NCBI GenBank assembly: GCA_934435195.1
Contig: CAKSAJ010000008.1
Span: forward strand, 18,382-82,381
Length of the DNA stretch: 64,000 bases
Reading direction: 5' to 3'
Source of the DNA: an uncultured Schaedlerella sp.
GTDB taxonomy: Bacteria > Bacillota > Clostridia > Lachnospirales > Lachnospiraceae
Under the pieces are notes generated by a model. That model did not search any database. It saw only the letters and a program-made list of their open reading frames with translations, and was not told where the DNA came from. Position numbers and translations under genes: made by a program. Shown here piece after piece: positions 24,291-46,669 of this stretch; positions within the stretch are counted from its first letter, which is position 1; each line of letters opens with the position of its first letter.

Positions 24291-25253
24291 ATGAAAATAG
24301 AGTATCGAATTCAAAAAGATTATATAGAAATTGTACGTTGTTACGGAGTGGATTCCTGCGTAACGCTTCCGGCGCAAATTGACGGATATCCGGTAAAAAA
24401 AGTAGCTGCATATACATTTTCAGCGAGAAAATCACAGGAAGATGCGGATGTACTTACTTATGAAAGTGAAGATGGTCTTTTGTTGGAAGAAAATAATAAA
24501 TTGCTTGCGGGAGTAGAGGTAGAGAAAGTCATCTTTCCGGAGACCGTTGAAGAAATCGGTAATTATATTTTTTATGGCTGTAAGGAATTGCGATATCTGG
24601 AATTTTCCAATACATTAATGAGTATAGGGAGCGGAGCATTTACCGGATGTGGCAAATTGAGTGGATTGAAAGTGCATATGAAGCAGGGAGAGAAATCTTG
24701 TGTGAAAGAGATTCTTGGAGATTTGTGGCAGCGGATAGATGTTACTTTTATATATGGAGAAACAGGGAAAGAGGCAAGATTAGTATTCCCGGAACATTAT
24801 GAGGAAGCGGTAGAAAATACACCGGCAAGAATTTTGTTTACACAACATCATGGAACGGGCAATAATTATCGACAGTGTTTCTATAATAAGGAAATGGATT
24901 ATCGAAAATATGATGAGTTGTTTGTTTTGGCAAAAGCACAGGATAAACAAGAAGTATTGGTCGATATGGTGTTTAACAGGTTAGAATATCCGTATGATTT
25001 GACAGATAAAAACAAAGATGAGTATAAAGACTATATGTTGGAACATTTTGTACAGTGGTCAGAGATTTTAGTGGAGCAAGATGCGATTGAACGATTGCAA
25101 TTTTTAAGTAAACAAAGTCTTTGGAATCGGGAGATGTTGGACATAGCTATTATGGAAGCCTCTGAAAAGAAAAGGGGAGAAACATTAAGCTTTCTTATGA
25201 ACGAAAAACAGAGCTTGTATCCGGAGCGGAAGAAGAAAACGTTTGAATTATAA
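24291..25253 (+). CDS. Hypothetical protein with BspA-type leucine-rich repeat (LRR_5-like) segment
   Basis: IPETVEEIGNYIFYGCKELRYLEFSNTLMSIGSGAFTGCGKLSGL fits the LRR_5 pattern. First gene of a three-gene block with the VWA and AAA genes (12-bp and 75-bp gaps). Confidence 0.4.
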   Translation: MKIEYRIQKDYIEIVRCYGVDSCVTLPAQIDGYPVKKVAAYTFSARKSQEDADVLTYESEDGLLLEENNKLLAGVEVEKVIFPETVEEIGNYIFYGCKELRYLEFSNTLMSIGSGAFTGCGKLSGLKVHMKQGEKSCVKEILGDLWQRIDVTFIYGETGKEARLVFPEHYEEAVENTPARILFTQHHGTGNNYRQCFYNKEMDYRKYDELFVLAKAQDKQEVLVDMVFNRLEYPYDLTDKNKDEYKDYMLEHFVQWSEILVEQDAIERLQFLSKQSLWNREMLDIAIMEASEKKRGETLSFLMNEKQSLYPERKKKTFEL

Positions 25254-25264
25254 AAGAGGAGGGG

Positions 25265-26599
25265 ATGCAGATGGACAATCAAGGATCAGGAACGCTGGAT
25301 GCGACCAGTGAACTTGCTGAACAATTAGAGCGGATCGGGACACAAATTTTGAATGCATCCCGTGCAGAATTATATTTCGGTATGCGTTTTTTGGATGTGG
25401 CTTTAAGCAGTTTTGATTATCAGATGAATACGGAGATTGCACCATTTGGAACGGACGGAAGAAGTATCTTTTACCATCCGCAATTATTGGGTGGAATGTA
25501 CCGAAAAAATCGAATTCAGGTTAATCGGGGATATTTGCATATGGTATATCATTGCATTTTCCGTCATATCGTAAAACCTGTAAATGGAAATGTGTGGGAG
25601 CTAAGCTGTGATATTGCGGTAGAACATCTGGTGGACGCCAATTATCACAGGTCGGTGAGGTCTTCTAAGAGTTTGCTGCGGCGTGAAACATATAGGCGGT
25701 TGGAGCAGGAGGCAAATGGAAAAGTGCTGAATGCGGAACGCATTTTTAAGATTCTGCAAAGCTGGAATCTCGGAGAAAAGGAACTGGAGAAGCTGGAACA
25801 GGAATTTTATGTGGACGATCATCGATATTGGGAGAGTCAGAAACCAAACCAACAGCCAGATCCAATATTGAATCAGAAGTGGCAGGACATCAATGAACAA
25901 ATGGAAACAGATTTGGAGACATTTTCGAAAGAAGCATCACAAGAAAATGGTGATTTCATTGGACAGATAAAAATAGAGAATAGAGAACGGCATGACTACA
26001 AATCATTTCTTAGAAAGTTTTCTGTGTTCAGGGAAGAAATGGGAATCGACCCGGATTCTTTCGATTATAATTTTTATAGTTATGGATTATCATTGTATGG
26101 AAATATGCCTTTGATAGAACCACAGGAAACAAAAGAAGTAAAGAAAATAGAAGAGTTTGCGATTGTTATAGATACTTCCATGTCGTGTTCCGGTGAACTG
26201 GTACAAAAATTTCTGGAGGAGACTTATAGCGTTCTAAAGGAAAATGAAAGTTTTTTTAAGAAAATAAATGTGCATATTATTCAGTGTGATGAGCAGGTGC
26301 ATTCTGACTGTAAGATTACAAGTGAAGAGGACTTAAAAGAATACATGGAACATATGGAATTGTATGGTCAAGGAGGGACAGACTTTCGTCCGGCATTTGA
26401 ATATGTGGAGCAGTTAGTCAGAGAAAAAGAGTTTCATGACTTGCGTGGATTGATATATTTTACAGATGGGTATGGCATCTATCCAAATAGAATGCCGCCA
26501 TTTAAAACAGCATTTGTTTTTATGCAGGAAGATTATACAGACGTAGATGTTCCTGTGTGGGCAATCAAACTAATATTAAGTGAGGATGAATTAGGATAG
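25265..26599 (+). CDS. DUF2201-type putative metallopeptidase domain + VWA domain protein
   Basis: Central/C-terminal VWA with MIDAS-like DTSMSCSG and GGTDFRPAF. N-terminal region (YHPQLLGGMYRKNRIQVNRGYLHMVYHCIFRHI) resembles the DUF2201_N putative peptidase domain. Partner of the downstream AAA ATPase. Confidence 0.6.
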   Translation: MQMDNQGSGTLDATSELAEQLERIGTQILNASRAELYFGMRFLDVALSSFDYQMNTEIAPFGTDGRSIFYHPQLLGGMYRKNRIQVNRGYLHMVYHCIFRHIVKPVNGNVWELSCDIAVEHLVDANYHRSVRSSKSLLRRETYRRLEQEANGKVLNAERIFKILQSWNLGEKELEKLEQEFYVDDHRYWESQKPNQQPDPILNQKWQDINEQMETDLETFSKEASQENGDFIGQIKIENRERHDYKSFLRKFSVFREEMGIDPDSFDYNFYSYGLSLYGNMPLIEPQETKEVKKIEEFAIVIDTSMSCSGELVQKFLEETYSVLKENESFFKKINVHIIQCDEQVHSDCKITSEEDLKEYMEHMELYGQGGTDFRPAFEYVEQLVREKEFHDLRGLIYFTDGYGIYPNRMPPFKTAFVFMQEDYTDVDVPVWAIKLILSEDELG

Positions 26600-26674
26600 A
26601 CTTCTATCGTATCGGCAGTTACATTGGCTGATTTGATAGAAATAAAGTAAGAGGAAGTATAGAAGGGATATAAA

Positions 26675-28198
26675 ATGGATATAAAGCGTGCGAAACAGGA
26701 AATCAAAGATTCTATAGAGGCGTATTTGGCGAAGGATGAGTTTGGAGCATATCGGATTCCGGCTATCCGCCAAAGACCGGTACTTCTGATGGGGCCTCCG
26801 GGGATTGGTAAAACACAGATCATGGAACAAATTGCAAAGGAATGTAAAATTGGTCTGGTTGCATATACAATTACGCACCATACAAGACAAAGTGCAGTCG
26901 GATTACCATTTATTAAAGAAAAAATATATGGCGGACAGACGTATTCGGTAACAGAATATACGATGAGCGAAATTATTGCGTCAGTGTATGAGAAAATTGA
27001 ACAGACGGGAATCAAAGAAGGAATTCTGTTCATTGATGAGATTAACTGTGTGTCAGAAACACTGGCACCGACAATGCTTCAATTTTTACAAGGAAAAACA
27101 TTTGGAAATCAGAAAATTCCGCAAGGCTGGATTATTGTGGCAGCAGGAAATCCACCGGAGTACAACAAGTCAGTTAGAGAATTTGATATCGTTACACTGG
27201 ATCGAATTAAAAAAATCAATGTAGAGGCAAATTTGGATGTATGGAAAGAATATGCGTATAAACAGGGCATTCATCCGGCAGTGATATCATATCTGGAGCT
27301 GCGCAAACAGAATTTTTACCGGATTGAGACAACAGTAGACGGCAAAGCATTTGCTACGGCAAGAGGCTGGGAAGATTTGTCACAGCTTATACAGACTTAC
27401 GAAGTGCTTGGAAAAACAATAGACAGGGATGTCATTGCCCAGTATATCCAGCATAAAATGATTGCAAAAGATTTTGCAAATTATCTGGAACTCTTCTATA
27501 AATATAGGAAAGATTATGGCGTGGAAGATATTCTGGAAGGGAAATGGAATACCGCAACGTTACAGAAAATCAAGGCGGCTCCGTTTGATGAGCATTTAAG
27601 TGTAGTGAGTCTGTTAAATGGTAAAGCAAGTGAAATGTTCCAGAAAAGTTTCCTGGAGGATTCATATGTTTCAAAAGTATACGAATATTTATTGATTTAT
27701 AAAGATAATCTAGAATCTATGCGCCCAGAAGATATCTGGCATCAGGCAGAACGCGATTATCAGGAACAGATACGAAAAGAATTATTGAATCATACAGAAG
27801 AAATCGTAATGAAAAAGGCGGTTGCGGCACTGGAGAAATTTGCAAAACAAAGCCAGGATAATATTTTGGAAAATAATAGTGAAGAACAATTTGAACAAGT
27901 AAAAGAAATGTTCGGAGAGCTTGTACAGAACCGTGAAAATCTGATAGAATTGACTTCAGAGATGCTGACGCATATTTTTGATTTTATGGAGACTGCATTT
28001 GGAGAGAGTCAGGAAATGGTTGTACTGATCACAGAATTGAATGCCAACAGTTATGCGGTGTGGTTTATTAAAGAAAATGGCTGCGATCAGTATTATCGGT
28101 ATAATAAAGGGTTGCTGTTCGATGAGCGTCAGCAGGCAATCGTACAAGATATGGATGCAGTAGAGACATTGTTAAACAAGCAAGGGGCAATCAGCTAA
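26675..28198 (+). CDS. AAA family ATPase (MoxR/AAA_5-like) partner of the VWA protein
   Basis: Walker A PVLLMGPPGIGKTQIM and Walker B ILFIDEINC. 507 aa with a long helical C-terminal extension. Confidence 0.7.
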   Translation: MDIKRAKQEIKDSIEAYLAKDEFGAYRIPAIRQRPVLLMGPPGIGKTQIMEQIAKECKIGLVAYTITHHTRQSAVGLPFIKEKIYGGQTYSVTEYTMSEIIASVYEKIEQTGIKEGILFIDEINCVSETLAPTMLQFLQGKTFGNQKIPQGWIIVAAGNPPEYNKSVREFDIVTLDRIKKINVEANLDVWKEYAYKQGIHPAVISYLELRKQNFYRIETTVDGKAFATARGWEDLSQLIQTYEVLGKTIDRDVIAQYIQHKMIAKDFANYLELFYKYRKDYGVEDILEGKWNTATLQKIKAAPFDEHLSVVSLLNGKASEMFQKSFLEDSYVSKVYEYLLIYKDNLESMRPEDIWHQAERDYQEQIRKELLNHTEEIVMKKAVAALEKFAKQSQDNILENNSEEQFEQVKEMFGELVQNRENLIELTSEMLTHIFDFMETAFGESQEMVVLITELNANSYAVWFIKENGCDQYYRYNKGLLFDERQQAIVQDMDAVETLLNKQGAIS

Positions 28199-30211: not shown

Positions 30212-31306
30212 ATGAATTACTGCTCAAAATGTGGAGAAAAACTAGTTGATGGAGCCAAGTTTTGTCAGAAATGCGGAACACCTGTTCATGATGGCTTTTA
30301 TAAAGACTCAGAAGAGAGACAGAAGGTGTACGAAGGAAAAATATATAAATGCCCAAATTGCGGAGAAGTGCTTAAATCCTTTGCAAGAAATTGTCCGGCA
30401 TGTGGATTTGAATTGCGAGGAACAAAGGCCACGAGTGCAGTTCGAGAATTTGTTTTAAAATTAGAAGCAATAGAGGCAAGACGAGAATATGAAAAACCAA
30501 AAGGTATTTTTTCAGCTTCACAGAATCAAATAAATATATCCAAAACGGATGAGCAAAAGATTAACTTGATTCAGAATTTTTCTGTACCGAATACAAGGGA
30601 AGATATGTTAGAATTTATGATTTTGGCTACTTCAAATATAAATATGAAATCATATGATTCTGCTAATTCAAGTATTACTAAGGGAGAAAAAGCAATAACA
30701 GATGCTTGGAATTCGAAAATTAAACAGGTATATGAAAAAGCGAAAAGATCATATGGAGATGCAGCGGATTTTGCTGAAATTCAAGAATTATACGATAAAT
30801 CAAATTTTGAAATAAAGAAAGCAAAAAAAACTGGAATTATAAAATGGGGATTGATGTTTGGATGGATTCCAATTTTGTTTATTATAGTTTTTTCAGTATT
30901 AGGAATTAAGGCACCTGGAGCAGAAAAAAAAGAAATTGCCAGAATGGAAAGTATATATAAAGAAGCGCAGACTGCTTTGGAAAATGATGAATATAAAAGA
31001 GCATTATTAAATGCAGAGGGGCTTGTATATAGCCCGAATATAACAAATGGAAATACGGAGGAATTGAAACGTCAGTGGGATATTAAAAGAGAGTTATTAC
31101 TAGATGAAATTTTGAAAGAGGCTGAAAAAAATGGTATAGAACTTGAATATACACCACAAGATGATACAACATTAGATGATACTTCATCAAAAGGAGGATT
31201 CATTCAGGGTATAAAAGATGGTGCACAGCCTGGAATTGATGCAGCAAAAGAAAACATTGATGAGTTTAATAAGATTATGAATGGTGAGGATGAAAAAGAA
31301 AAGTAG
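30212..31306 (+). CDS. Double zinc-ribbon membrane protein, function unknown
   Basis: MNYCSKCGEKLVDGAKFCQKCGTPV and CPNCGEVLKSFARNCPACGFEL (two zinc ribbons). Single TM segment IIKWGLMFGWIPILFIIVFSVLGI. Charged helical C-terminus. Confidence 0.55.
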   Translation: MNYCSKCGEKLVDGAKFCQKCGTPVHDGFYKDSEERQKVYEGKIYKCPNCGEVLKSFARNCPACGFELRGTKATSAVREFVLKLEAIEARREYEKPKGIFSASQNQINISKTDEQKINLIQNFSVPNTREDMLEFMILATSNINMKSYDSANSSITKGEKAITDAWNSKIKQVYEKAKRSYGDAADFAEIQELYDKSNFEIKKAKKTGIIKWGLMFGWIPILFIIVFSVLGIKAPGAEKKEIARMESIYKEAQTALENDEYKRALLNAEGLVYSPNITNGNTEELKRQWDIKRELLLDEILKEAEKNGIELEYTPQDDTTLDDTSSKGGFIQGIKDGAQPGIDAAKENIDEFNKIMNGEDEKEK

Positions 31307-31319
31307 GAGGAAGTGTGAG

Positions 31320-32681
31320 ATGGGATTGTTTAGCAGAAACACTGGAGGGCTTATGGATTCTATTCGATGTGATGAGCCTTCATACTTGATATGGAAATGG
31401 CATCCGACTGGAGCAAATACAAGAAATAACAATAGGGAGAATGCAATTCGTTGGGGATCTTCCTTAAGAGTAAAAGATGGTGAAGTTGCAGTATTTGTAT
31501 ATAAGCAAAAAGATGGAATCATGCAAGATTTTATTGTTGGTCCATTTGATCAGACAATAAAAACAGTAAATTTTCCTGTGCTTGCGAGTATTGTGGGATT
31601 AGCTTACGATGGAGGAACACCGTTTCAAGCAGAGGTATATTTTATAAATCTTGCTCAAATCGTACAGATAAAGTTTGGGGTACCGTTTTTTGACGTGTAT
31701 GATCCACGTTTTGAGGATTTTGGAGTGCCAGTGGCCGTAAGAGGAACTATTAGCTTTAAAATTACTGATTACCGCCAATTTATCAAGTTACATAGATTAA
31801 GTAATTTTAGCCTTGATGATTTTCAAAAGCAGATTCGGGATGTAGTAATTAGATATGTAAAAGATGCCGTTGCAAATGCTCCGGCAATGAATAATATACC
31901 GCTAGTACAAATTGAATCTAAAACGTCGCAGATTAATGATACTATTGAATACGATATCAGTGAAAGATTGAAGGAAGATTTTGGGGTAGATGTATCTGGA
32001 ATTGATATAGGAGCAATTGAGATTGATAAATCAAGTGAAGGGTACAGACAACTTATGAGTGTAACCAAAGATGTAACTACAGAAACTGTTAAAGCAGAAA
32101 CAGCAGCTAAGGTAAAAGATATTGCAGATCGACAGCGAATAGATGTGGAACATTACGGAGAGAGCTTACGGATTCAGAGGGAAGAAGCTCAATATGCACA
32201 GCATAAACAAACACAAACGAATAATATAGGAGCCTTTCAAGTTGAAAAGCAAGCAGAAGTTGGAATCGCAGGTGCTGAAGCGTTGGGGAAAATGGCATCT
32301 AATAGTGCAGGAAATGTAAATCTTTCTGGCAGTGGAGATGGTTTTAATATGGCGGCGATGATGGCAAGCATGGCTGTTGGTGGAGCAGTGGGACAAAATA
32401 TAGCAGGTTCTATGAATAATATGATGTCAGGAATGAATCAATCAGTACAGAGTGTCGCAACACCACCTCCAGTTCCGGGCATTTCGTATTATGTTGCAAT
32501 AAATGGACAGGCAACGGGACCATATGACTTTAGTATTTTAAAGCAAATGTTGAAAGTAGGAGAGCTTACAACAGAAAGTTTAGTGTGGAAAACGGGAATG
32601 GTTGAATGGAAAAAAGCAGGAAGTGTAGATGAATTAAAACAATTATTTCCTGATATTCCACCAATTCCATCTCAAAACTAA
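31320..32681 (+). CDS. SPFH/Band-7 (Band_7_1, 'virion core protein'-like) domain protein with C-terminal DUF4339 (GYF-like) domain
   Basis: N-terminal MGLFSRNTGGLMDSIRCDEPSYLIWKWHP... resembles Band_7_1-family SPFH proteins. C-terminal ISYYVAINGQATGPYDFSILKQMLKVGELTTESLVWKTGMVEWKKAGSVDEL is the DUF4339 pattern. SD aggagg 9 nt before the ATG at 31320. Confidence 0.55.
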   Translation: MGLFSRNTGGLMDSIRCDEPSYLIWKWHPTGANTRNNNRENAIRWGSSLRVKDGEVAVFVYKQKDGIMQDFIVGPFDQTIKTVNFPVLASIVGLAYDGGTPFQAEVYFINLAQIVQIKFGVPFFDVYDPRFEDFGVPVAVRGTISFKITDYRQFIKLHRLSNFSLDDFQKQIRDVVIRYVKDAVANAPAMNNIPLVQIESKTSQINDTIEYDISERLKEDFGVDVSGIDIGAIEIDKSSEGYRQLMSVTKDVTTETVKAETAAKVKDIADRQRIDVEHYGESLRIQREEAQYAQHKQTQTNNIGAFQVEKQAEVGIAGAEALGKMASNSAGNVNLSGSGDGFNMAAMMASMAVGGAVGQNIAGSMNNMMSGMNQSVQSVATPPPVPGISYYVAINGQATGPYDFSILKQMLKVGELTTESLVWKTGMVEWKKAGSVDELKQLFPDIPPIPSQN

Positions 32682-32683
32682 AA

Positions 32684-33160
32684 ATGTCTAATTGGCAGAG
32701 AAGAAGGAAAAATATGAAAAAATTAGATACCGAAATATTGAAAACATGGTTGAAATCCGGATGGCAATTCTTGTTAGATGAAATAAGAACATATAATAAA
32801 GAAGAATGTGAACAAGCATTTGCAGATGCAGTAGAAATAGGAATTAGCAACACAGTTTCAGCATTATACGATGCAAATGTTTCAGAAGAAGAAATCGGAA
32901 GAGCATTGAACAAATTTTGGGGCATTAACAAAAATGAAGCAGATGAAAGAATTCTATATGAAAAAAGTAATGCTATAATAAGGGAATTAAAACATTATTT
33001 GAAAATGCAAGGATATTCGGATCAGGAATTAAAACAACTTGCAATGAATACGGGTGCATTTTCTAAAATTAGACATGATAAAGAGATGTGGAAATTAAAA
33101 GGTTCACCAGAAAAAGTATATAAGATGTTGACAAAAAATAATGATATTAAAAGAAAATAA
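32684..33160 (+). CDS. Hypothetical protein
   Basis: 158-aa ORF with a 2-bp gap after the SPFH gene. No recognised domain. Confidence 0.4.
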   Translation: MSNWQRRRKNMKKLDTEILKTWLKSGWQFLLDEIRTYNKEECEQAFADAVEIGISNTVSALYDANVSEEEIGRALNKFWGINKNEADERILYEKSNAIIRELKHYLKMQGYSDQELKQLAMNTGAFSKIRHDKEMWKLKGSPEKVYKMLTKNNDIKRK

Positions 33161-33199
33161 ATTTTTGACATTTTCACAGATGCGTGCTAATCTGATTAT

Positions 33200-33300
33200 A
33201 GAAAAAGAGTGCTACCGATAGACGGTTAGTCCGTTTTGTTATTTAGAATATCTATCAAAGATAACCGCTTAGTTTGCAGACAGGGCGGTTATTTTTGTGG
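33200..33300 (+). ncRNA. Candidate antisense small RNA (putative type I antitoxin) overlapping the 3' end of the minus-strand peptide gene
   Basis: Perfect -35 TTGACA at 33165-70 with TAATCT 17 bp downstream. Terminator-like hairpin ataaccgc-N16-gcggttat + ttttgtgg at 33262-33300 overlaps the stop of the peptide gene. Inferred, not demonstrated. Confidence 0.25.
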
Positions 33301-33387
33301 CTTATTATTATCCTTGCCAAAGGTATATCCAAGACCAAAGCAGGTTAAGCCGAAGCTTACCACCGCTATGAAGTCAACAATACTCAT
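33289..33387 (-). CDS. 32-aa hydrophobic peptide, candidate type I toxin (holin-like toxin class)
   Basis: Minus strand encodes MSIVDFIAVVSFGLTCFGLGYTFGKDNNKPQK, with SD aaaaggaggg 5 nt upstream. Single TM helix plus charged tail, like Hol_Tox/TxpA-type peptides. Below the 60-aa ORF-track cutoff. Confidence 0.45.
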   Translation of the reverse strand: MSIVDFIAVVSFGLTCFGLGYTFGKDNNKPQK

Positions 33388-33736
33388 GGTTTAGCCCTCC
33401 TTTTCACTGGATTCTTTTACAGGTTTCTATGTAATCAGAGGGTCACAGGTCTACACTCCGTTTCGGTCGTTGCTAAACGAGTGCCACTGGCGCTCAGCAA
33501 CCTCCGTTGAAGGACTAACCGCCTACCATTATGGTAGCACCCATAGTCTGATTATAACCGCCTAAAACTGTCGGCACAATATAAAGTTGACAGAGTATAG
33601 CAACTGTAGAAGAGAATCTTTTTGGATAGGGCTTCCGGTGCCAAGAAATTAGGTAAATAAAAATACATGGTGAAGATCAGCCGTTTTTCACTGTATTTTG
33701 GAGAAATAAATATGAGGTAAAATTGGATTAAAGTAT

Positions 33737-33772
33737 CGTGAAGGTGGACGTACTGTAGAATCAGGACGTGTT
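33737..33772 (+). repeat. Imperfect direct repeat copy B (cgtgaagGTGGACGTACTGTAGaATCAGgACGTGTT)
   Basis: Pairs with copy A at 28880-28914; the two bracket ~4.8 kb of small accessory genes. Confidence 0.5.
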
Positions 33773-34003
33773 TATGTACCATTTAATCATATGGAGTAAG
33801 AAGAAACATTGAATAAAGCAAGGTCTAAATTCTGTGTACATGAACGAAGGTATGTGGAAGAAAAGTATTGGAACAATCCAGATTATTTGTTTGATTGGAC
33901 GGATGGGAGTTTATACAGGGAGAATATTATGCTGTTGACATTCGATGGGAATTGCCATTAAAATTATTGTTGCGAAGGTTACAGTAAAAGGAGTATGGTG
34001 TCA

Positions 34004-34978
34004 ATGCAAAAGAAACCTAAAAGTATTAATGCGCTGATGGCATATATGCGAGATGAAAAAGGATTGAATATTTCTGGAAGTAGTGATAAGAAAAAACTTA
34101 GATATATGGGTTATTTCCATGGATATAAGGGGTATCGTTATCATAATAATCCGGCGAATACGTATGCATTCAATTCTTTTGATGAGGTGCAGGCAATCTA
34201 TGACTTTGATATGGCGATTAAGACAATGTTTTATCCGGAGATAATGTTCTTGGAAACTGCATTTAAAAACTATGTTTTGGAAGTTATTTTGGAAGATGCT
34301 AAAAGTAAAAGATTTGCGGATATATATGCGAAATTGTTAACGGATTACAAAGCTTATCCGATAGGTAGTAATGATTATAAAAAAGCAATCAATAAAAGAA
34401 TGAATCTTAGAAATAAAGTATATAGCCTTATTTCCCGAGATTATGGTAAGCGGTTTATAGTGAATCATTATTATGACAAGGATCAGCCGCTTCCTATATG
34501 GGCAATCTTTGAATTGATTAGCCTTGGTGAATTTGGTACATTTGTAGATTGTCTTGATCCAAATACCAGGAAAAAAGTTTCTAAGAGTGTAGGGATAAAG
34601 GTTGCTTATGACCGGGATGGTAAATTGTTACCATTGATCGTATATGCATTAAAGGATTTAAGAAATGCTGTAGCACACAATAATACGATTTTTGATGCCC
34701 GATTTAAAACGGGTAAGGTAAGCTTGAGAATTGCTAAGTGTATAAGTGTAGAGACCGGAATTAACAATATTACATTCGAGTCTATTGTTGATTATGTGAT
34801 TCTTATAAGCTTTATGATGAAACTATTAGAGTGTCCAAAGAAGAAAATTATGGCATTTATTCGTTTGTTCGAAAAGAACTGTGAAGAACTTAGGGGAAAG
34901 GTTTCTACATCCATTTTCAACACAGTTGTGTATACAGATACCAGAACGAAGTTGAATTTATTGAAAAAATATTTGTAG
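34004..34978 (+). CDS. Abi_2 family (AbiD/AbiF-like) abortive-infection protein
   Basis: LRYMGYFHGYKGYRYHNN...FNSFDEVQAIYDFDMAIKTMFYPEIMFLETAFKNYVLEV matches the Abi_2 N-terminal pattern (nigYYrLsgY..., fddl..LYeFDreLR..l...ie.iEi.lr). ATG at 34004 has SD aaggag. Confidence 0.65.
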   Translation: MQKKPKSINALMAYMRDEKGLNISGSSDKKKLRYMGYFHGYKGYRYHNNPANTYAFNSFDEVQAIYDFDMAIKTMFYPEIMFLETAFKNYVLEVILEDAKSKRFADIYAKLLTDYKAYPIGSNDYKKAINKRMNLRNKVYSLISRDYGKRFIVNHYYDKDQPLPIWAIFELISLGEFGTFVDCLDPNTRKKVSKSVGIKVAYDRDGKLLPLIVYALKDLRNAVAHNNTIFDARFKTGKVSLRIAKCISVETGINNITFESIVDYVILISFMMKLLECPKKKIMAFIRLFEKNCEELRGKVSTSIFNTVVYTDTRTKLNLLKKYL

Positions 34979-35191: not shown

Positions 35192-36004
35192 ATGAGTAAA
35201 AGAAATAGAAAAAAGAAAAATAAGGCAGGAAATATCATTTCCACTATCATATTGATTATAGCTGTCTGTGTATTTGTGGTTGCTGCATATCAGTTACTCC
35301 TTAATGTTCTCCCGTATTATCAGGGCGGGAAAGACTATGATAAGGTAAAAAAACTTGCAGTTTGGACGGACGGCACAGACGATAAAGATGCAAAAACTTC
35401 AGGTGAAGAACAAGTAGGGGAAGCAGCTTCAGGATTCAAAGTAGATTTTGCAACACTATTGGAGATGAATCCGGATACAGTAGCGTGGATTCGATTTGAT
35501 GAGCCGTCGATCATTAGTTATCCGGTAGTAAAAAGCCAGGATAACAATGAATATTTGACAAAGACATTTACAGCAAATGACAATAAATTGGGAGCAATCT
35601 TTGTTGATAAAGACTGTGCATCAGATTTTTTGGGAAGAAATACGTTAATCTACGGACATCATTTGAATTATGGCGGGGAGATGTTTTCGAGATTAAATGA
35701 ATATGCGGATGAGAGCTTTTGTAAGGCACATCCATATTTCTATATTTACACACCGGATGGAAAAACGAGAACATATCAGGTGTTCAGTGCCGGTGTTGTG
35801 AAGGATACTGCGGATAATTATATCCTGTCCTATGCGACAGACGAAGATTTTATGAAATATATTGAACTGTGCAGGAGCACATCTAATTATGCTGTGGATG
35901 TAGAGGTAAATGCACAATCCAAAATTGTAAGTTTGTCTACATGCACGAATGTGAATGAAGACGAAAGATTTTTGTTACAAGGTGTATTGGTAGAAGAAAA
36001 ATAG
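35192..36004 (+). CDS. srtB: Class B sortase
   Basis: N-terminal TM anchor, NTLIYGHH, catalytic SKIVSLSTCTN (TLxTC) and C-terminal Arg region. Length and motifs fit SrtB. Confidence 0.75.
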   Translation: MSKRNRKKKNKAGNIISTIILIIAVCVFVVAAYQLLLNVLPYYQGGKDYDKVKKLAVWTDGTDDKDAKTSGEEQVGEAASGFKVDFATLLEMNPDTVAWIRFDEPSIISYPVVKSQDNNEYLTKTFTANDNKLGAIFVDKDCASDFLGRNTLIYGHHLNYGGEMFSRLNEYADESFCKAHPYFYIYTPDGKTRTYQVFSAGVVKDTADNYILSYATDEDFMKYIELCRSTSNYAVDVEVNAQSKIVSLSTCTNVNEDERFLLQGVLVEEK

Positions 36005-36627: not shown

Positions 36628-37080
36628 ATGAACAAGGTAGTTTTGGTAGGAAGATTAACCAGAGACCCGGAAGTTAGATATTCTCAGGGTGACAGCTCAA
36701 CAGCAGTTGCCAGATATACATTAGCAGTAGACCGCAGATTTAAAAGAGATAATGAACCAAGCGCAGATTTTATTCCGTGTGTTGTGTTCGGTCGTTCAGG
36801 TGAATTTGCAGAAAAATATTTCCGTCAGGGAATGCGCGTTTCCGTTTCCGGTCGTATCCAGACAGGAAGCTATACAAATAAGGATGGCGTAAGAGTCTAC
36901 ACTACTGAGGTAATCGTAGAAGAACAGGAATTTGCTGAAAGCAGAGCAGAGAGTGAAGCGAACAGAGGTGCGTTCCACCAGTCAGCTCCTAGCCAGGCAG
37001 CACCATCACCAAGCGTTGATGCCGGAGATGGCTTCATGAATATTCCAGATGGAATCGATGAGGAGTTACCGTTTAACTAA
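36628..37080 (+). CDS. ssb: Single-stranded DNA-binding protein
   Basis: MNKVVLVGRLTRDPEVRYSQGD...FIPCVVFGRSGEFAEKYFRQGMRVSVSGRIQTGSYTNKDGVRVYTTEVIV OB-fold core, Gly/Pro/Gln-rich tail and acidic C-terminal DEELPF. Confidence 0.9.
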   Translation: MNKVVLVGRLTRDPEVRYSQGDSSTAVARYTLAVDRRFKRDNEPSADFIPCVVFGRSGEFAEKYFRQGMRVSVSGRIQTGSYTNKDGVRVYTTEVIVEEQEFAESRAESEANRGAFHQSAPSQAAPSPSVDAGDGFMNIPDGIDEELPFN

Positions 37081-37104
37081 AGTCTGACTTCCAAATGAAT
37101 AAAT

Positions 37105-37386
37105 ATGGAGGTAAACGAAATGGCTTACGAAAAAGGTAGCAAACCAGAAGGCGGCTTCAAGAGAAGAGGCCCAGCACGCAGAAGAAAAAAAGTTTGCGTA
37201 TTCTGTGGTAAAGAAAATAACGAAATCGATTACAAAGACGTTGCAAAATTAAAGAAATATGTTTCTGAAAGAGGAAAAATTCTTCCAAGAAGAATCACAG
37301 GAAACTGTGCAAAACATCAGAGAGCTCTTACAGTAGCAATCAAGAGAGCAAGACACATTTCTTTGATGCCATACGTCCAAGACTAA
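37105..37386 (+). CDS. rpsR: 30S ribosomal protein S18
   Basis: [60 protein letters not shown]. Confidence 0.9.
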
Positions 37387-37482
37387 GCCTTATAAATAGG
37401 GCGTTTGCGAACAGGTTTATCCAATTTTACACCACTTTTACACCAATTGTGGGATAAAAATTGGAGGTAACGAATTCGAAAA

Positions 37483-37516
37483 GATCTAGAACCGTCATTA
37501 CGTGTGTAATGGCGGT
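37483..37516 (+). terminator. Rho-independent terminator of the rpsF-ssb-rpsR operon
   Basis: ccgtcattac-gtgt-gtaatggcgg (10-bp stem with one G-U pair) followed by tttttt. Confidence 0.6.
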
Positions 37517-37638
37517 TTTTTACTAAAAATATCTGAACAAATCATATCAATAAAAAATCGAAAAAACATCACCCAAACAAGATAATATATAATTCCAAAT
37601 AAAATGGTAATTGGTGTCTCATTTTCAAATTCAAAGGT

Positions 37639-38160
37639 TTGAAAGGAGAAAAGACCATGAAACAAAACACAGCGTTAAGAGCAAGCAATTCAAAGAATCA
37701 CACACACATTATTTTCAAAAATCAGGAGCACGAAGAATTCTACTATTCTTCACTAAAGAACTGCAGATATCAAGACAGTTATCATGAAGCATTATGTTAC
37801 TGCCTTGGGATATCCGATGATACAAGACAGAATGTAAATCGTATTTATGATTTCACAACTGGGTATATCAAGCCGGAATGTCTGCATGATGGGTGGCAAA
37901 CAAGCGGTTCATTAAAAATCGTTCGTTTAGCCTTTAATCTCTATACAGATGGGGTACCGACAGTGGAAGAAGATGACAGCCATGAGGAGCAGTTAGATGA
38001 ATGTAGACAATATAGTGTTTCTGATTTATTTTGTTGCAGTTATGCAAAATACTTCTGGCAGGCAATTGGACTTCGGTATCCGGAATACGTAAATTATCGT
38101 TCAATGGAGGAAATCTTATATGGTCAAAGTGAGATTGCAGGGAACAAAACAAGATATTAA
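37639..38160 (+). CDS. Hypothetical protein (first ORF of the conjugative element)
   Basis: 173-aa ORF, cysteine-rich. No domain recognised. Confidence 0.4.
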   Translation: MKGEKTMKQNTALRASNSKNHTHIIFKNQEHEEFYYSSLKNCRYQDSYHEALCYCLGISDDTRQNVNRIYDFTTGYIKPECLHDGWQTSGSLKIVRLAFNLYTDGVPTVEEDDSHEEQLDECRQYSVSDLFCCSYAKYFWQAIGLRYPEYVNYRSMEEILYGQSEIAGNKTRY

Positions 38161-38287
38161 TTGGTTTATTGAAAGAGTATTAAAAAATAACAATGAGGTA
38201 AAAGTCTTAGATATTTCTGAGACTTATGCCAACAAAGGGACAAACAGATTTGTTCGATTGTATTCAGAAGTAGAAAAGGCTAAGTAG
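38120..38287 (+). CDS. Possible 55-aa small protein overlapping the previous ORF
   Basis: MVKVRLQGTKQDINWFIERVLKNNNEVKVLDISETYANKGTNRFVRLYSEVEKAK, with SD ggagg 8 nt upstream. Below the ORF-track size cutoff. Confidence 0.3.
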   Translation: MVKVRLQGTKQDINWFIERVLKNNNEVKVLDISETYANKGTNRFVRLYSEVEKAK

Positions 38288-38303
38288 CAGGAGGAAATAG
38301 TGT

Positions 38304-39092
38304 ATGTGTAGAGTAATTGCAATTGCAAACCAAAAAGGAGGCTGCTCAAAAACAACAACCAGTATCAATCTGGGAGTAGGACTTGCCCGCTTGGGAGAAA
38401 AAGTACTTTTGGTAGACAATGATCCGCAAGGTCATATGACAATGGGGTTGGGATTTCCAAAGAATCTGAGAGTGACGTTAAAGACGATGATGGAAAATAT
38501 TATCATGGGTGTAGAGTTTGATCCTAAAGAGGGAATTCTACATCATTCGGAGGGCGTGGATTTAGTGCCTGCTAATAAACTGCTCACAGGGATGGACATG
38601 TCTTTGATTTCAGTGGATGACCGAGAAAATGTATTGAAGGAATATTTGGAGTTATTGAAAGACGAGTATTCATATATCATCATTGATTGTATGCCGTCTC
38701 TTGGTATGCTCACGGTAAATGCGATGAGTGCAGCTGACAGCGTTCTGATACCGGTTCAGCCACAATATTATGCTGCAGACGGTCTGGTAGAACTTTTAAA
38801 AGTGATAAAAAATATCAAGAAAAGATACAATCCGAGAATTGAAATTGAAGGAATCCTGTTTACGATGGATAATTGTCGTTATAACAATTCAAAGAGAAAT
38901 AAGAAAGCGATTTGTGATGCATACGGAAATGAGCTGAATATTTTTCAAGATTCAATTCCAAGATTAGAGGCGATTGCCGAGACTGCTTCGGAAGGAATCA
39001 GTATATTTGAATATGCAGAAAATAGTAAAGGGGCAGACAGCTATGGAAGACTGGCAGAGGAGGTGTTGAATCATGGCAAGAAGAGTAAATAA
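38304..39092 (+). CDS. parA: ParA/Soj family partition ATPase
   Basis: Deviant Walker A MCRVIAIANQKGGCSKTTTSINLG and VLLVDNDPQG. Confidence 0.85.
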   Translation: MCRVIAIANQKGGCSKTTTSINLGVGLARLGEKVLLVDNDPQGHMTMGLGFPKNLRVTLKTMMENIIMGVEFDPKEGILHHSEGVDLVPANKLLTGMDMSLISVDDRENVLKEYLELLKDEYSYIIIDCMPSLGMLTVNAMSAADSVLIPVQPQYYAADGLVELLKVIKNIKKRYNPRIEIEGILFTMDNCRYNNSKRNKKAICDAYGNELNIFQDSIPRLEAIAETASEGISIFEYAENSKGADSYGRLAEEVLNHGKKSK

Positions 39093-39987
39093 AGAGATTC
39101 AACTTACGTCCTATGAGGATTTGCTTGGTGTTGAAGAAAACGAAGTTCTGTCAGATCAGATTATGGAGTTGCCAATTTCCGAATTGCATGATTTTAAGAA
39201 TCATCCATTTCAAGTCAGAGAAGATGACGAGATGGAAAAGCTTTCGGAGAGTGTCAAAGAATATGGTGTACTAAACCCTGCATTGGCAAGACCAAAAGTG
39301 GATGGTGGATATGAACTGATTTCAGGACACAGAAGAAAACTGGCGAGTATAAGAAGTCATAGAGAAACCATGCCGGTCATTGTAAGGGACTATAGTGACG
39401 ATGAAGCGGTGGCAATTATGGTGGATTCGAATATTCAAAGGGAGAACATTCTTCCGAGTGAAAAAGCCTACGCATATAAGATGAAATCAGAAGCATTGAA
39501 GCATCAAGGCATAAGTAGTGGCTACAAGGAAAACACCTCTTCTATTATTGGAAAAGAAGCCGGAGACAGTGGGAGAACGGTTCAGCGTTACATTCGATTA
39601 ACAGAATTGATACCGGAATTGTTGGAAGCAGTAGACAAGGAAAAAATCAAGTTTATGCCAGCAGTATTCTTATCATATTTAAGTCAGAGTGAACAACAGT
39701 GGGTAAGTCAATGTATTACGAAAAATAGATGTGGAGTTTCGATTGATAAAGCGAAGAAATTAAAGGAATACAGCGAAGCAAATGAATTGACAGAGCTGGC
39801 GGTCGAATTAATTTTGTTAGGTGAAAAAAGAGAAGTTATGAGTGTGACATTGCCAGAGAAGCGGATTCGACAGTACTTTCCAAAGGAGTACGGAAAGGAA
39901 CAGATAGAAAATATTATCATTTCTCTTCTGGAACAGTGGAAGCAGAATGAGGAAAGGGGAGAAGCGCATGGAGCCGATACAGTTTGA
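39073..39987 (+). CDS. parB: ParB/Spo0J-like nuclease domain partition protein
   Basis: ISELHDFKNHPFQVREDDEMEKLSESVKEYGVLNPALARPKVDGGYELISGHRRKLAS is the ParB N-terminal box II region. Overlaps the parA end. Confidence 0.75.
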   Translation: MARRVNKEIQLTSYEDLLGVEENEVLSDQIMELPISELHDFKNHPFQVREDDEMEKLSESVKEYGVLNPALARPKVDGGYELISGHRRKLASIRSHRETMPVIVRDYSDDEAVAIMVDSNIQRENILPSEKAYAYKMKSEALKHQGISSGYKENTSSIIGKEAGDSGRTVQRYIRLTELIPELLEAVDKEKIKFMPAVFLSYLSQSEQQWVSQCITKNRCGVSIDKAKKLKEYSEANELTELAVELILLGEKREVMSVTLPEKRIRQYFPKEYGKEQIENIIISLLEQWKQNEERGEAHGADTV

Positions 39988-41062
39988 CTATTTTCGTGGA
40001 CTTGAAGCAGAGCAATACAACTTCTATCGGGTGCCGAAGATATTGTTTACAGGAGAGTGCTTTCGCGCTCTCTCCTGTGAGGCAAAGGTGTTATACGGTC
40101 TGATGTTGGACCGTATGAACCTAAGTATAAAAAATCAGTGGATTGATGAAGAGAATCGACCGTATATCTTCTTTACGATTGAAGAAATTATGGAGTTTCT
40201 CGATTGCAAAACGCAAAAAGCAACGAAGCTGATGAAGGAACTGGATACGGAATCGGGTATTGGTTTGATAGAAAAGAAACGATTAGGTATGGGAAAACCG
40301 AATGTAATTTATGTAAAGAATTTCATGGTAAAGTCGAATGTAGAACCTAAATCAAAAGAAAAAGAGCCTGAAATCCCAGAAAACACGCAGACTTTTGAAA
40401 ATCAAAATTCAAGAATTTCGGAAATCAAAAATCAAGACTTTCGAGAATCAAAAATCAAGACTTTTGAAAATCAAAATACAGGACTTTTGAAAATCAAAAA
40501 TCAAGACTTTCGAGAATCAAAAATCAAAACTTTTGAAAATCAAAGTTCAAGAAATTTGAAAATCGAGAATCAAGAATTTCGAAAATCAAAATGTAATAAT
40601 ACTGATAATAATAAAACTGATTATAGTGAGACTAATCCTATCCATCTATCTGCAGATTCTGCACAGCAGAAAACTGAAGGGAGGGATTTGATGGATGAGG
40701 TGCAGATTTACACCGATATTGTGAAATCCAATATCGAGTATGACACCGTTTGGATAAACACGCCAGAGAAGGATCGAAAGTATGTAGATGAAATGGTGGA
40801 GTTGATGGTGGAGATGCTTTGCATCAAAAAGGATCCCATCCTCATTGCCGGAGCGGAATATCCTTGTCAGCTTGTGAAGAGCAAGCTGTTGAAGATTGAC
40901 TCTTCGCACATTGAATACATTTTGTGGAGCTTAAAGAAGAATACCACAAAGATTCGAAACATCAAGGCATACTTGCTGACCTGTATCTTCAATGCTCCGT
41001 CTACGATTCACAACTTCTATCACGCAGAAGTGAATCATGACCTATGCGGAGCGGGGGTGTGA
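39968..41062 (+). CDS. RepA_N family replication initiator
   Basis: FDYFRGLEAEQYNFYRVPKILFTGECFRALSCEAKVLYGLMLDRMNLS...YIFFTIEEIMEFLDCKTQKATKLMKELDTESGIGLIEKKRLGMGKPNVIYVKNF is the conserved RepA_N winged-helix N-terminal domain. Repetitive central region. Confidence 0.7.
   Translation: MEPIQFDYFRGLEAEQYNFYRVPKILFTGECFRALSCEAKVLYGLMLDRMNLSIKNQWIDEENRPYIFFTIEEIMEFLDCKTQKATKLMKELDTESGIGLIEKKRLGMGKPNVIYVKNFMVKSNVEPKSKEKEPEIPENTQTFENQNSRISEIKNQDFRESKIKTFENQNTGLLKIKNQDFRESKIKTFENQSSRNLKIENQEFRKSKCNNTDNNKTDYSETNPIHLSADSAQQKTEGRDLMDEVQIYTDIVKSNIEYDTVWINTPEKDRKYVDEMVELMVEMLCIKKDPILIAGAEYPCQLVKSKLLKIDSSHIEYILWSLKKNTTKIRNIKAYLLTCIFNAPSTIHNFYHAEVNHDLCGAGV
40388..40596 (+). repeat. About nine degenerate ~22-bp direct repeats (TTTyGARAATCAAAAATCAAGA-like) inside the RepA_N gene: iteron-type origin candidate
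   Basis: Visible as the tandem peptide repeats FENQNSRISEIKNQDFRESKIKTFENQNTGLLKIKNQDFRESKIKTFENQ. In RepA_N-family replicons the origin lies within the central repeat region of the rep gene. Confidence 0.6.
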
Positions 41063-41077
41063 AATACATAAAAACAA

Positions 41078-41719
41078 TTGAATAACGAGAAAGGAATGGA
41101 AATGCTGCAGTTGGATGAAGACCAGATTAAGGAAACCCTGAAACACTACCAAGAAATCACGCAGCAAATCCATGCTCGTGTTTTAAGTATCCGTCAAATG
41201 ATGGATGAAACAAACAATCAGCTGATTGAGATTGCATCGTATCCCAAAATAGACTTTGGCAAAACCAGTACTCGATGTGGTACACGGAAAGATTTACTGG
41301 ATGTCTATGAACGATATCAAGAGTTGATTGAAGAAAAAGAGGAGAACTTTGCAGAAGAGCTTCGGGAGCTGCTTGTCCGAGCGGAAAGTGTAAAGCGGGT
41401 ATATTTATGCTATCAGGCACTTGGAAATGAAGCCTATGAGATTGTAGACAAGCTGTACATCAAAAAGATTCCGTATAAAGCAGTGGAAGCGGAGTCGGGT
41501 TTGAATCACCGGATTTTTGAGGAGAAGAGAAAACTGGCAATCAAGGAAATACAGAGGCTCTATGAAAGTGACCGGTCGGATATGCAGATTGTCAGATATT
41601 CGAATCAGCGAAGCCACAAGAAAAAACGAACTGTGGTGGAAGTCGATGGACAGATGTCGATGATGGATTTTATGAATCAAGAGAAAGTAGAAACAGAGAG
41701 TAAAACAGGAAACGGTTGA
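41078..41719 (+). CDS. Hypothetical protein, possible sigma-70 region-4-like HTH regulator
   Basis: C-terminal YIKKIPYKAVEAESGLNHRIFEEKRKLAIKEIQRL is HTH-like. Weak call. Confidence 0.3.
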   Translation: MNNEKGMEMLQLDEDQIKETLKHYQEITQQIHARVLSIRQMMDETNNQLIEIASYPKIDFGKTSTRCGTRKDLLDVYERYQELIEEKEENFAEELRELLVRAESVKRVYLCYQALGNEAYEIVDKLYIKKIPYKAVEAESGLNHRIFEEKRKLAIKEIQRLYESDRSDMQIVRYSNQRSHKKKRTVVEVDGQMSMMDFMNQEKVETESKTGNG

Positions 41720-41723
41720 GGAG

Positions 41724-42290
41724 ATGAGAAAGATGAGTTGGAATGAACATCAGCCAGTGAAGCTGGATTGGATGAAAGAGTATTATGAAACAGAACGAAT
41801 CTATAAACAGAACCGGACAAGAGTATACATCCTGTTTGGCATTGGGATGCTGCTCAATCTTGGTCTGTGGATCTGGTATGCAAAAGCTGAAGGCTATCAT
41901 CCGGTGTTGGAGCAGCTACAAATAATCAGCCCGACTTGGAAGAACCAGTTTTTCCTGTATCTGGACGAATGGAAGAGAAGTGATATTGGGATGCGGATGT
42001 TTGGTTCAGTTATTCTGCTTGGAATGGTCGTTGGGAGAATATACAGGATATTGTGTCAAATCGGATTTCTCTTTGGTATCTGGTGGGTATGGAAACGATT
42101 TTGGCAGAAAAGTATGTTGATTTGCATGCTTTCCATTCTGTTTTGCTTTATAACCATCTGGTTCTACCTTGGTGCAGCCTATGTGATTGCGGGACCGGTG
42201 ATGTTATGTGAGTTTATGAAACTCCATACACAAAAAGTAAAACGAGAGGTACATAAAAAAGCAATTGATGTATGTAAGGATTCAAAGTGA
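41724..42290 (+). CDS. Hypothetical polytopic membrane protein
   Basis: 188 aa with 4 predicted TM helices, Trp-rich. Confidence 0.4.
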   Translation: MRKMSWNEHQPVKLDWMKEYYETERIYKQNRTRVYILFGIGMLLNLGLWIWYAKAEGYHPVLEQLQIISPTWKNQFFLYLDEWKRSDIGMRMFGSVILLGMVVGRIYRILCQIGFLFGIWWVWKRFWQKSMLICMLSILFCFITIWFYLGAAYVIAGPVMLCEFMKLHTQKVKREVHKKAIDVCKDSK

Positions 42291-46657: not shown

Positions 46658-46669
46658 AAAGGATGACAA

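Follow-up and report, generated by a model that had tools for sequence, protein, structure and literature searches.

A candidate type I toxin–antitoxin cassette of an undescribed family in Lachnospiraceae, with a modelled anti-Shine–Dalgarno switch

The DNA analysed here (the window) is a stretch of 64,000 nucleotides (nt) on contig CAKSAJ010000008.1 of an uncultured Schaedlerella sp., a bacterium of the Lachnospiraceae. Lachnospiraceae are a major commensal group of the human gut, and toxin–antitoxin (TA) systems of type I are well studied in Bacillus, Staphylococcus, Enterococcus, Clostridioides difficile and enterobacteria. At positions 33165–33579 the window carries an autonomous cassette that comprises a short open reading frame (ORF) on the minus strand, a promoter on each strand, a hairpin shared by the two strands, and complementary segments in the 5′ and 3′ untranslated regions (UTRs) of the predicted mRNA of the ORF. 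An earlier reading of the sequence, referred to below as the original prediction, had proposed a type I TA locus at this place, in which a small RNA (sRNA) made from the plus strand would control a hydrophobic peptide encoded on the minus strand. All elements that it named are found at the coordinates it gave. The features of the cassette are as follows, where SD denotes the Shine–Dalgarno sequence and H2 and T1 are hairpins.

33165–33193, plus strand: promoter of the predicted sRNA, read from the sequence (−35 TTGACA at 33165–70, 17-nt spacer, −10 TAATCT at 33188–93)
33196–33206, minus strand: U-rich run UCUUUUUCU directly past the 3′ element, the predicted 3′ end of the long toxin mRNA
33201–33300, plus strand: predicted antitoxin sRNA of ~100 nt, ends inferred
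33207–33232, minus strand: 3′ UTR element, composed of B′ GGACUAACCGUCUAUC (33217–33232) and A′ GGUAGCACUC (33207–33216)
33256–33297, both strands: hairpin T1, shared and lying between stop codon and 3′ element (arms 33256–68 and 33285–97)
33289–33387, minus strand: ORF for the 32-residue peptide MSIVDFIAVVSFGLTCFGLGYTFGKDNNKPQK, stop codon included, from the ORF list
33388–33400, minus strand: ribosome binding site GGAGGGCUAAACC, with potential pairing to the B arm in the 5′ element
33423–33435, minus strand: apparently unpaired stretch AUUACAUAGAAAC directly after H2, at least 90% conserved across subfamilies in alignment A2
33436–33506, minus strand: hairpin H2 (5′ arm CGGAGG(U) at 33500–06, 3′ arm CCCUCUG at 33436–43)
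33509–33520, minus strand: anti-SD stretch GGUUAGUCCUUC within the 5′ element
33509–33542, minus strand: 5′ element, composed of the A arm GGGUGCUACC (33533–42), the bulge AUAAU (33528–32) and the B arm GGUAGGCGGUUAGUCC (33512–27)
33551–33579, minus strand: toxin promoter, read from the sequence (−35 TTGTGC at 33579–74, 17-nt spacer, −10 TATAAT at 33556–51)

The ORF is preceded by a strong SD, as the original prediction described it; the motif is GGAGGG at 33395–33400 of the minus strand, 7 nt 5′ of the AUG. Among 61 distinct homologous loci the pairwise differences at the three codon positions amount to 0.19, 0.10 and 0.42, and codon differences of one nucleotide are synonymous in 13103 cases and non-synonymous in 6698, a ratio of ~2:1. 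This coding signature marks the 32-residue ORF as a gene under purifying selection. The peptide residues T15, C16, F17, L19, G20, Y21 and G24 are invariant. AlphaFold2, run on the single sequence, places residues 3–27 in one helix (pLDDT 83.5), and the mean hydropathy is +1.53 for residues 2–24 and −3.41 for the polar, charged tail. The modelled product is a single-helix membrane peptide, presumed to be the toxin. A search of the PDB sequences with the peptide yielded nothing.

The toxin promoter occurs in the same position, with a score of at least 8/12, in 52 of 54 loci. Its −10 box is extended by TG in 48 of the 54 loci (the window copy has GG instead) and ends 6–9 nt before the 5′ element (GGGUGC) in 50 of the 54, so that the helix formed by the 5′ and 3′ elements would begin at the first transcribed base. 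The predicted minus-strand mRNA that encodes the peptide would be ~345 nt long and extend roughly from 33542 to 33196. The G+C content of its 5′ UTR is 50%, compared with a window average of 39%, in agreement with the GC-rich leader noted earlier. The U-rich run follows A′ in most loci, and in 10 of the 61 aligned loci a canonical terminator, a hairpin with a T run, lies on the toxin strand just past A′ (for example at 1675–1705 of locus L066, with a 13-bp stem). These separate toxin-strand terminators indicate that the toxin mRNA includes the 3′ element.

The two ends of this mRNA are complementary. An inverted-repeat search recovered the segments 33200–33232 and 33512–33549, and on the minus-strand RNA the A arm GGGUGCUACC pairs with A′ GGUAGCACUC over 10 bp and the B arm GGUAGGCGGUUAGUCC with B′ GGACUAACCGUCUAUC over 16 bp. 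The 5-nt bulge is the sole interruption of the resulting 26-bp helix, such that nt 1–31 of the mRNA pair with 26 nt of its own 3′ UTR. The original prediction was right that the two UTRs pair; the helices of 8 and 10 bp that it gave are smaller than the actual 10 and 16 bp. RNAfold closes the helix in the 346-nt minus-strand RNA (−118.7 kcal/mol, z = −5.4), and none of 100 shuffled sequences is as stable.

Comparative evidence comes from alignment A2, which contains the 61 distinct cassettes from the predicted transcription start to just beyond the 3′ element. RNAalifold finds the long-range helix independently on this alignment. The 26 pairs are formed in 96.1% of 1568 cells, and 15 of the pairs have changed on both sides; for example, pair 9/434 is AU in 37 loci, GC in 18 and GU in 3, pair 53/416 is UA in 31, CG in 21 and UG in 8, and pair 51/418 is AU in 39 and GC in 15. 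Double changes are seen in 109 cells, compared with 33.6 ± 6.9 in shuffles that ignore phylogeny (0 of 500 reach 109), and slid controls, which preserve phylogeny, pair in 24–50% of cells. Because compensatory changes keep the helix in 61 distinct homologous loci, the 5′/3′ pairing is not a chance match; the complementarity is conserved in related loci, and the check by folding and covariation that accompanied the original prediction comes out in its favor. The non-Watson–Crick cells of the helix comprise 224 G·U and 24 A·C when read on the toxin strand, and two G·U pairs are nearly invariant. Neither a DNA repeat nor a structure of the opposite strand would give such an excess of G·U. Thus, the helix is a structure of the toxin-strand RNA, and the comparison indicates that it is selected in the minus-strand RNA. 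Local hairpins were considered in place of the long-range helix; both arms can fold alone, with 92.7% of cells paired. However, changes in column 8 are compensated in the distant 3′ partner (UA 48, UG 6, CG 5) and not in the local one (UA 53, 7 unpaired), and the local hairpins are therefore best read as an alternative state.

Hairpin H2 is paired in 97.2% of cells, with its pair 72/157 being AU in 29 loci and GC in 28, and its 3′ arm is a possible second anti-SD sequence. The stretch AUUACAUAGAAAC that follows H2 is unpaired in every model. Its pairing with the tail past A′ has z = −3.7 in the window, but the family mean is z = −0.84 and this pairing is not a family feature. The H2 loop of the window copy contains a 52-nt insertion (33448–33499, minus strand). 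A related insert occurs in the same orientation in loci L026, L034, L035, L037, L042 and L096 (blast matches of 22–30 nt at 95–97% identity), and reverse-complemented at the same site in loci L011, L045 and L051 (92–94% identity over 51–52 nt). As the H2 arms form a flanking inverted repeat, inversion of the insert is suggested. No further copies of the insert were found among the collected sequences.

On the plus strand, the −35 TTGACA and the −10 TAATCT at 17-bp spacing that the original prediction had noted are present in the window, and a sigma-70-type promoter in the same position with at least 9/12 matches occurs in 62 of 65 loci. TTGACA itself is found in 45 of the 65 and the 17-nt spacer in 55. 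The −10 box drifts in sequence (TAATAT, TATATT, TAAGAT), its position being fixed ~15 nt before the complement of A′. The sRNA predicted from this promoter would be antisense over its whole length, to the toxin 3′ UTR and to the final codons of the ORF. Its predicted fold (−28.3 kcal/mol, z = −2.9) comprises a 5′ hairpin (CUACCG-AUAGA-CGGUUAG) and a terminator hairpin with a U run behind it.

The terminator hairpin is T1, and the terminator-like hairpin with a T tract over the peptide stop that was described earlier is indeed present there. T1 has T runs on both strands, and the T run 3′ of its arms overlaps the stop codon. The hairpin covaries (pair 345/380 is GC in 44 loci and AU in 16), and its non-Watson–Crick cells comprise 1 G·U and 24 A·C on the toxin strand, i.e. 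24 G·U on the plus strand. Since the G·U pairs fall on the plus strand, T1 appears to be maintained as a plus-strand hairpin and weakened on the toxin strand, where read-through of T1 is needed to reach the 3′ element. From these sequences we take T1 to terminate the sRNA and, on the toxin strand, to be a leaky hairpin. The G·U excess, which favors the toxin strand in the long-range helix and the plus strand in T1, points to two structured RNAs on opposite strands. The 3′-overlapping antisense layout that had been likened to RatA and SR4 gains support from the conserved convergent promoter and from the wobble asymmetry of T1 on the plus strand.

The large T1 loop contains a conserved AAACU (A2 columns 367–371, window ~33273–33277), which is a possible first loop contact between the mRNA and the sRNA. 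Two other pairings were tried and set aside. In the first, the 5′ domain of the sRNA would pair directly with the ribosome binding site, as for SprA1AS; this has an energy of −13.4 kcal/mol vs −11.2 kcal/mol for shuffles, and just 14 of the 61 loci clearly beat their shuffles. An RNAalifold pairing between GGGC of the SD and GCCC of T1 exhibits no covariation and was not adopted. A search of the window against Rfam gave nothing above the gathering score save a thiamine pyrophosphate (TPP) riboswitch elsewhere, and no Rfam match lies inside the cassette in six other loci. The sole Rfam match in the cassette region, to ncr1015, a Bacillus sRNA of unknown role (PMC2965217), has E = 8.3, aligns with the promoter and terminator only and was treated as chance.

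The 5′ element has a second potential partner within the mRNA. Over its 12 nt the stretch GGUUAGUCCUUC is complementary to the ribosome binding site, and the 12-bp helix between the two is possible in 92.7% of cells, compared with at most 66.7% when the partner columns are slid. The mean energy of this anti-SD duplex is −17.6 kcal/mol vs −11.0 kcal/mol for shuffles, and that of the 5′/3′ helix is −42.0 kcal/mol. The 3′ element was masked to mimic the sRNA-bound mRNA or a transcript that ends at T1. In the minimum-energy folds of the masked RNAs the 5′ arm forms a local hairpin, locus after locus, and GGUUAGUCCUUC pairs with GGAGGGCU(A)AGCC, that is, with the SD and the spacer to the AUG. In 52 of the 61 loci the 5′ arm, once freed, complements the ribosome binding site. 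With the 3′ element masked, the mean unpaired probability of the SD decreases from 0.23 in the full-length RNA to 0.05, and the mean cost of opening the SD increases from 4.6 to 7.5 kcal/mol; the cost rises by at least 2 kcal/mol in 37 of the 61 loci and falls by that margin in none. Occlusion of the SD by mRNA structure, a criterion for type I systems, is thus found in the folding models of the 61 loci. Changes in the 5′ element that are compensated in B′ remain compatible with the ribosome binding site (U53/C53 with G228, A51/G51 with U230), which they fit through G·U and C–G alternation, and B′ itself resembles the ribosome binding site.

A three-state mechanism can be proposed on the basis of these models. 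In the nascent mRNA, or in an mRNA that ends at T1, the anti-SD stretch would close the ribosome binding site. Once transcribed, the 3′ element would capture the anti-SD stretch in the stronger helix (~−42 vs −18 kcal/mol) and leave the site more open. The antisense RNA would then form a perfect duplex with the 3′ UTR, such that the anti-SD stretch is released and silencing is restored, and the duplex would be an RNase III substrate and would probably trigger decay. The modelled energies place the ~100-bp perfect sRNA duplex above both the anti-SD and the 5′/3′ helices. Under this model the peptide would be made once the short-lived antisense RNA is gone, as could happen when the mobile element is lost. 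Because in the models the 3′ element removes the anti-SD stretch from the ribosome binding site, it would activate rather than inhibit translation, and the hok-type fold-back inhibition suggested in the original prediction becomes unlikely. Such a switch, with a repressor at the 5′ end, a decoy activator in the 3′ UTR that mimics the ribosome binding site, and an antitoxin that sequesters the activator and leaves the ribosome binding site itself untouched, would be new to TA systems; it is offered tentatively, with odds somewhat short of even.

The alternative that survives best retains the TA cassette and takes the 5′/3′ helix as a lock of the hok/AapA1 type. The mRNA would then be inert and stable until activated by 3′ trimming, and the antisense RNA would act on the processed mRNA. 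Fold-back inhibition is the established role of the helix in hok, as cited in PMC3834814. The SD is predicted to be closed in the full-length fold of the window copy and of several other loci, and even on average its opening costs 4.6 kcal/mol. However, when the 3′ element is removed or masked, access to the SD declines in 37 of the 61 loci and in none does it improve by a margin of at least 2 kcal/mol, and the 5′ arm freed in this way complements the ribosome binding site in the 52 loci mentioned above. Moreover, trimming would deprive the mRNA of its antisense target, since the antisense RNA covers the very 3′ element that is cut off; in hok the arrangement is the opposite. We regard a lock of this kind as unlikely.

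The cassette has many relatives. A blastn search identified two diverged copies that have the ORF, the promoters on the two strands, the hairpin and the pair of complementary elements in common with the window. One lies on the megaplasmid of Lachnospira eligens, in a gap left unannotated by RefSeq; the other is on a contig of faecal origin that is filed as phage. Scanning 185,579 species genomes with a peptide pattern yielded 293 relatives confirmed by tblastn, of which the best 80 were kept. The relatives are mostly labelled Lachnospiraceae (for example Blautia, Fusicatenibacter, Coprococcus, Dorea, Agathobacter and Eisenbergiella), and a peptide-pattern scan of IMG/VR yielded 7 related loci. 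A phmmer search against 1.84 billion cluster representatives gave 147 matches with E ≤ 1e-3. The exact 32-residue peptide is present on at least ~1000 contigs (18,535 index blocks of the gene collection) and is named only uncharacterised or hypothetical protein.

All other loci resemble the window only as far as ~33150 on one side and ~33560–33600 on the other, and the window's neighboring genes are shared by 0 of the 89 compared loci. Because the similarity stops at both edges, the unit is a self-contained cassette of ~410 bp. T1 and its own promoter travel with this cassette, which speaks against the possibility, raised with the original prediction, that T1 is merely the terminator of the gene at 32684–33160. 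Some genomes contain several copies: there are four in one Eisenbergiella metagenome-assembled genome, and loci L070 and L096 contain tandem pairs. The window copy deviates slightly from its relatives in the H2 5′ arm (GGAGGU), the 52-nt loop insert, the missing extended −10 TG and the sRNA −10 box (TAATCT, not TAATAT); it is intact, though perhaps more weakly expressed.

In ten long contigs that carry the exact peptide, the cassette lies beside a conserved backbone of HTH/DUF2007, DUF3784, TnpV and a Mob_Pre relaxase, which continues with DUF5348, an AAA_25 protein and an integrase. The other side of the cassette holds variable cargo in these contigs: SIR2, restriction-modification-Vsr, KAP NTPase, ABC/MerR, GmrSD and JetD. 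The neighbors in the window are AbiD, a sortase, SSB, ParA/ParB, RepA_N and LPXTG pilins. Backbone, cargo and window neighbors together indicate that the cassette rides mobilizable or conjugative elements among defence genes. By analogy, this context fits an addiction or abortive-infection role; for type I systems of C. difficile prophages such a role, the maintenance of mobile elements, has been shown (PMC7699646).

The comparative tests support the type I TA candidate of the original prediction through the selection on the ORF, both RNA structures, the convergent promoter, the multiple copies and the association with mobile elements. Two criteria of type I systems, a short ORF for a hydrophobic peptide and an antisense gene that overlaps the toxin mRNA, are found in silico. 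From sequence comparison and folding models we estimate a probability of roughly 75% that the region is a type I TA cassette of an undescribed family with a modelled anti-SD switch.

Several points weigh against this assignment. The loci were gathered by peptide pattern, 14 rearranged loci in which one element is missing were removed by eye before alignment, a choice that may have introduced bias, and the shuffle background of the covariation counts is blind to phylogeny. Formal covariation of the anti-SD helix is weak (8 double-change cells vs 3.7), because the SD side barely varies. The open state is just partly open, with an SD unpaired probability of 0.23, and in the window copy the SD is predicted to be closed in both states (unpaired probability 0.01; opening cost 7.1 kcal/mol vs 9.5 kcal/mol masked). 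The direction of the switch is taken from thermodynamic models, and because T1 has a U run on the toxin strand as well, many of the toxin transcripts may stop short of the 3′ element. As for the peptide, searches of Pfam-A with 28 family members at E ≤ 10 matched no toxin model, Hol_Tox included, and the peptide has no toxin-model match in NCBIfam, PHROGs or PADLOC. Pfam-A includes models of Fst-type and Hok-type toxins, and neither is among the matches of the 28 members; the sole Pfam matches of the family are PetM, ZZ_ADA2 and BcsF, each below cut-off. The proposed search with Hol_Tox/TxpA hidden Markov models thus went against the likeness to Hol_Tox, TxpA and BsrG drawn in the original prediction.

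These searches also bear on a second alternative, in which antisense RNA and mRNA structure control a conserved small membrane protein that is no toxin, such as one that regulates a membrane protein or is of benefit to the mobile element, and the cassette is no addiction or defence module. The peptide matches no toxin family, databases list it just as an uncharacterised protein, and many small membrane proteins are harmless. Nonetheless, the design as a whole is that of type I systems: a strongly conserved, short hydrophobic ORF has a consensus SD and would be silenced tightly and at several levels, the antisense gene overlaps fully and has a near-consensus promoter, and the 410-bp module is autonomous, multi-copy and carried by mobile elements among defence genes, which together render a harmless product improbable. 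Hardly credible is the view that the complementarity is a DNA feature, such as terminal inverted repeats or a recombination site, and the hairpin a terminator of the gene at 32684–33160: the cassette is autonomous in many contexts with repeats near its ends, and a plus-strand gene of the window ends ~100 nt upstream of the hairpin, but the mismatches are strand-specific (224 G·U vs 24 A·C, with two nearly invariant G·U pairs), conservation reaches beyond the repeats to both promoters, and the hairpin moves with the cassette and its own promoter whereas the 158-residue upstream gene is shared by 0 of 89 loci.

The surroundings of the cassette contain further features. An abortive-infection gene of the Abi_2/AbiD type adjoins it (33995–34978, plus strand; Pfam 4.4e-29, PADLOC AbiD 1.7e-27), with a near-consensus promoter upstream at 33935–33964. 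In C. difficile such Abi proteins are neutralised by an upstream non-coding RNA with abiF motifs (PMC12373285). Rfam found no abiF motif upstream of the window AbiD gene (33600–33995), even at E ≤ 10.

A 36-nt patch at 33737–33772 (plus strand), ~190 nt upstream of the toxin promoter, is 89–97% identical in 16 other cassette loci, and a 17th has a 22-nt match. Taken as a protein fragment, the patch gave a weak sub-cut-off match to FKBP26_IF in Pfam and nothing in the PDB sequences. It corresponds to the 3′ end of tuf, and by Pfam and tblastn it ends an EF-Tu ORF next to the cassette in loci L023, L073, L020, L031 and L033. The EF-Tu coordinates are 1679–2596 (minus strand) in L023, and 1292–1345 and 2479–3096 in L031, where a tuf fragment and a tuf gene flank the cassette. 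There is no tuf gene in the window. The patch looks like an att duplication belonging to elements whose integration site is the 3′ end of tuf.

Farther along the plus strand of the window, a block at 36628–47500 resembles a conjugative element and encodes SSB, DUF6075, ParA, ParB and RepA_N + DUF6017 proteins, two SpaA/LPXTG pilin-like proteins and a second sortase; the first sortase is at 35192–36004. Upstream of the cassette, a TPP riboswitch at 21930–22042 (minus strand) scores 59.1 bits, above the Rfam gathering score. The plus-strand regions 24192–28198 and 30212–32681 encode a BspA-type LRR protein, a VWA/DUF2201 protein and a MoxR-like AAA ATPase, and, further on, a double zinc-ribbon protein that overlaps an SPFH (Band_7_1) + GYF_2 protein; these may be further accessory or defence genes. 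In locus L002 (MT835527.1, filed as 'Bacteriophage sp.') the cassette-bearing contig end also encodes a full-length FtsZ-like ORF, and at least this portion of the record may be of bacterial and not of phage origin.

A full-text literature search found no description of a type I TA system in Lachnospiraceae, and a search on the peptide motif gave nothing relevant. The T1TAdb paper comprises 24 families and leaves Lachnospiraceae unmentioned (PMC8594479). The peptide motif is absent from a portion of the supplements of the small-protein preprint of Sberro et al. If the three-state reading is true, the mobilizable and conjugative elements of Lachnospiraceae from the human gut would have this cassette as their dominant, still unannotated module for addiction or defence. 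It marks the border of mobilizable elements with restriction, SIR2, KAP-NTPase, GmrSD and Abi genes, and for that reason may explain the persistence of such elements. It is also a possible stabilising or counter-selection module for genetically difficult gut anaerobes. Its long-range 5′/3′ mRNA helix is an unusually clean natural example with many compensatory changes, and the family allows a direct test of activation vs inhibition by such a helix.

Several known systems share parts of this architecture. The C. difficile prophage systems likewise occur in Clostridia, combine a small membrane toxin with an antisense RNA and help to maintain mobile elements (PMC7699646). They are taken to be separate families. 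We know of no comparable 5′/3′ helix in the type I systems of C. difficile. In hok/Sok and AapA1/IsoA1 the extreme 5′ end of the mRNA pairs with the 3′ end and folding controls access to the SD, as in the present family; the hosts there are Gram-negative, however, and the toxins unrelated. Furthermore, the hok 3′ element inhibits and must be trimmed and Sok targets the 5′ leader, whereas here the modelled 3′ element would activate and is covered by an antisense gene at the 3′ end. In par (fst/RNA II) of Enterococcus faecalis pAD1, convergent RNAs end at a common hairpin and both genes contain 5′ repeats (summarised in PMC3834814 and PMC8594479). The par repeats make the two RNAs mutually complementary, whereas the two 5′ ends are of the same sense here, so that the mRNA 5′ end pairs with its own 3′ UTR in competition with the sRNA. 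The systems txpA/RatA, bsrE/SR5 and yonT/SR6 resemble the cassette in their convergent 3′-overlapping genes, location in a prophage or island and small membrane toxin (PMC8594479, PMC6562991). Their toxin families differ from the present one, which does not match Hol_Tox. For txpA/RatA only the promotion of decay has been proposed, the SD helix being unchanged on RatA binding (PMC3834814).

Judged by sequence and by analogy, the family is new and its closest working analogue is bsrG/SR4 of the Bacillus subtilis SPbeta prophage. In bsrG mRNA, nt 1–35 pair with nt 232–262 in helix P1, and binding of SR4 frees the 5′ end, upon which the helix over the SD lengthens from 4 to 8 bp; decay that depends on RNase III acts alongside (PMC3834814). 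Both systems combine a short hydrophobic toxin ORF, a convergent 3′-overlapping antisense gene and a mobile element, and in both a long helix joins the mRNA 5′ end to a 3′ segment, whose strand is covered by the sRNA gene here. In bsrG/SR4 the bound antitoxin raises the occlusion of the SD; for the present family, folding models point the same way in 37 of the 61 loci and the opposite way in none. The two families exhibit no detectable sequence relationship (no Pfam toxin, no Rfam match). Moreover, the present hosts are Lachnospiraceae, in which the cassette is known here from sequence and models. The architectures also differ, in that here the shared hairpin is positioned between the ORF and the 3′ element and not after the 3′ element, the 5′ arm, when freed, is itself complementary to the ribosome binding site over 12 nt, and the 3′ element looks like this site.

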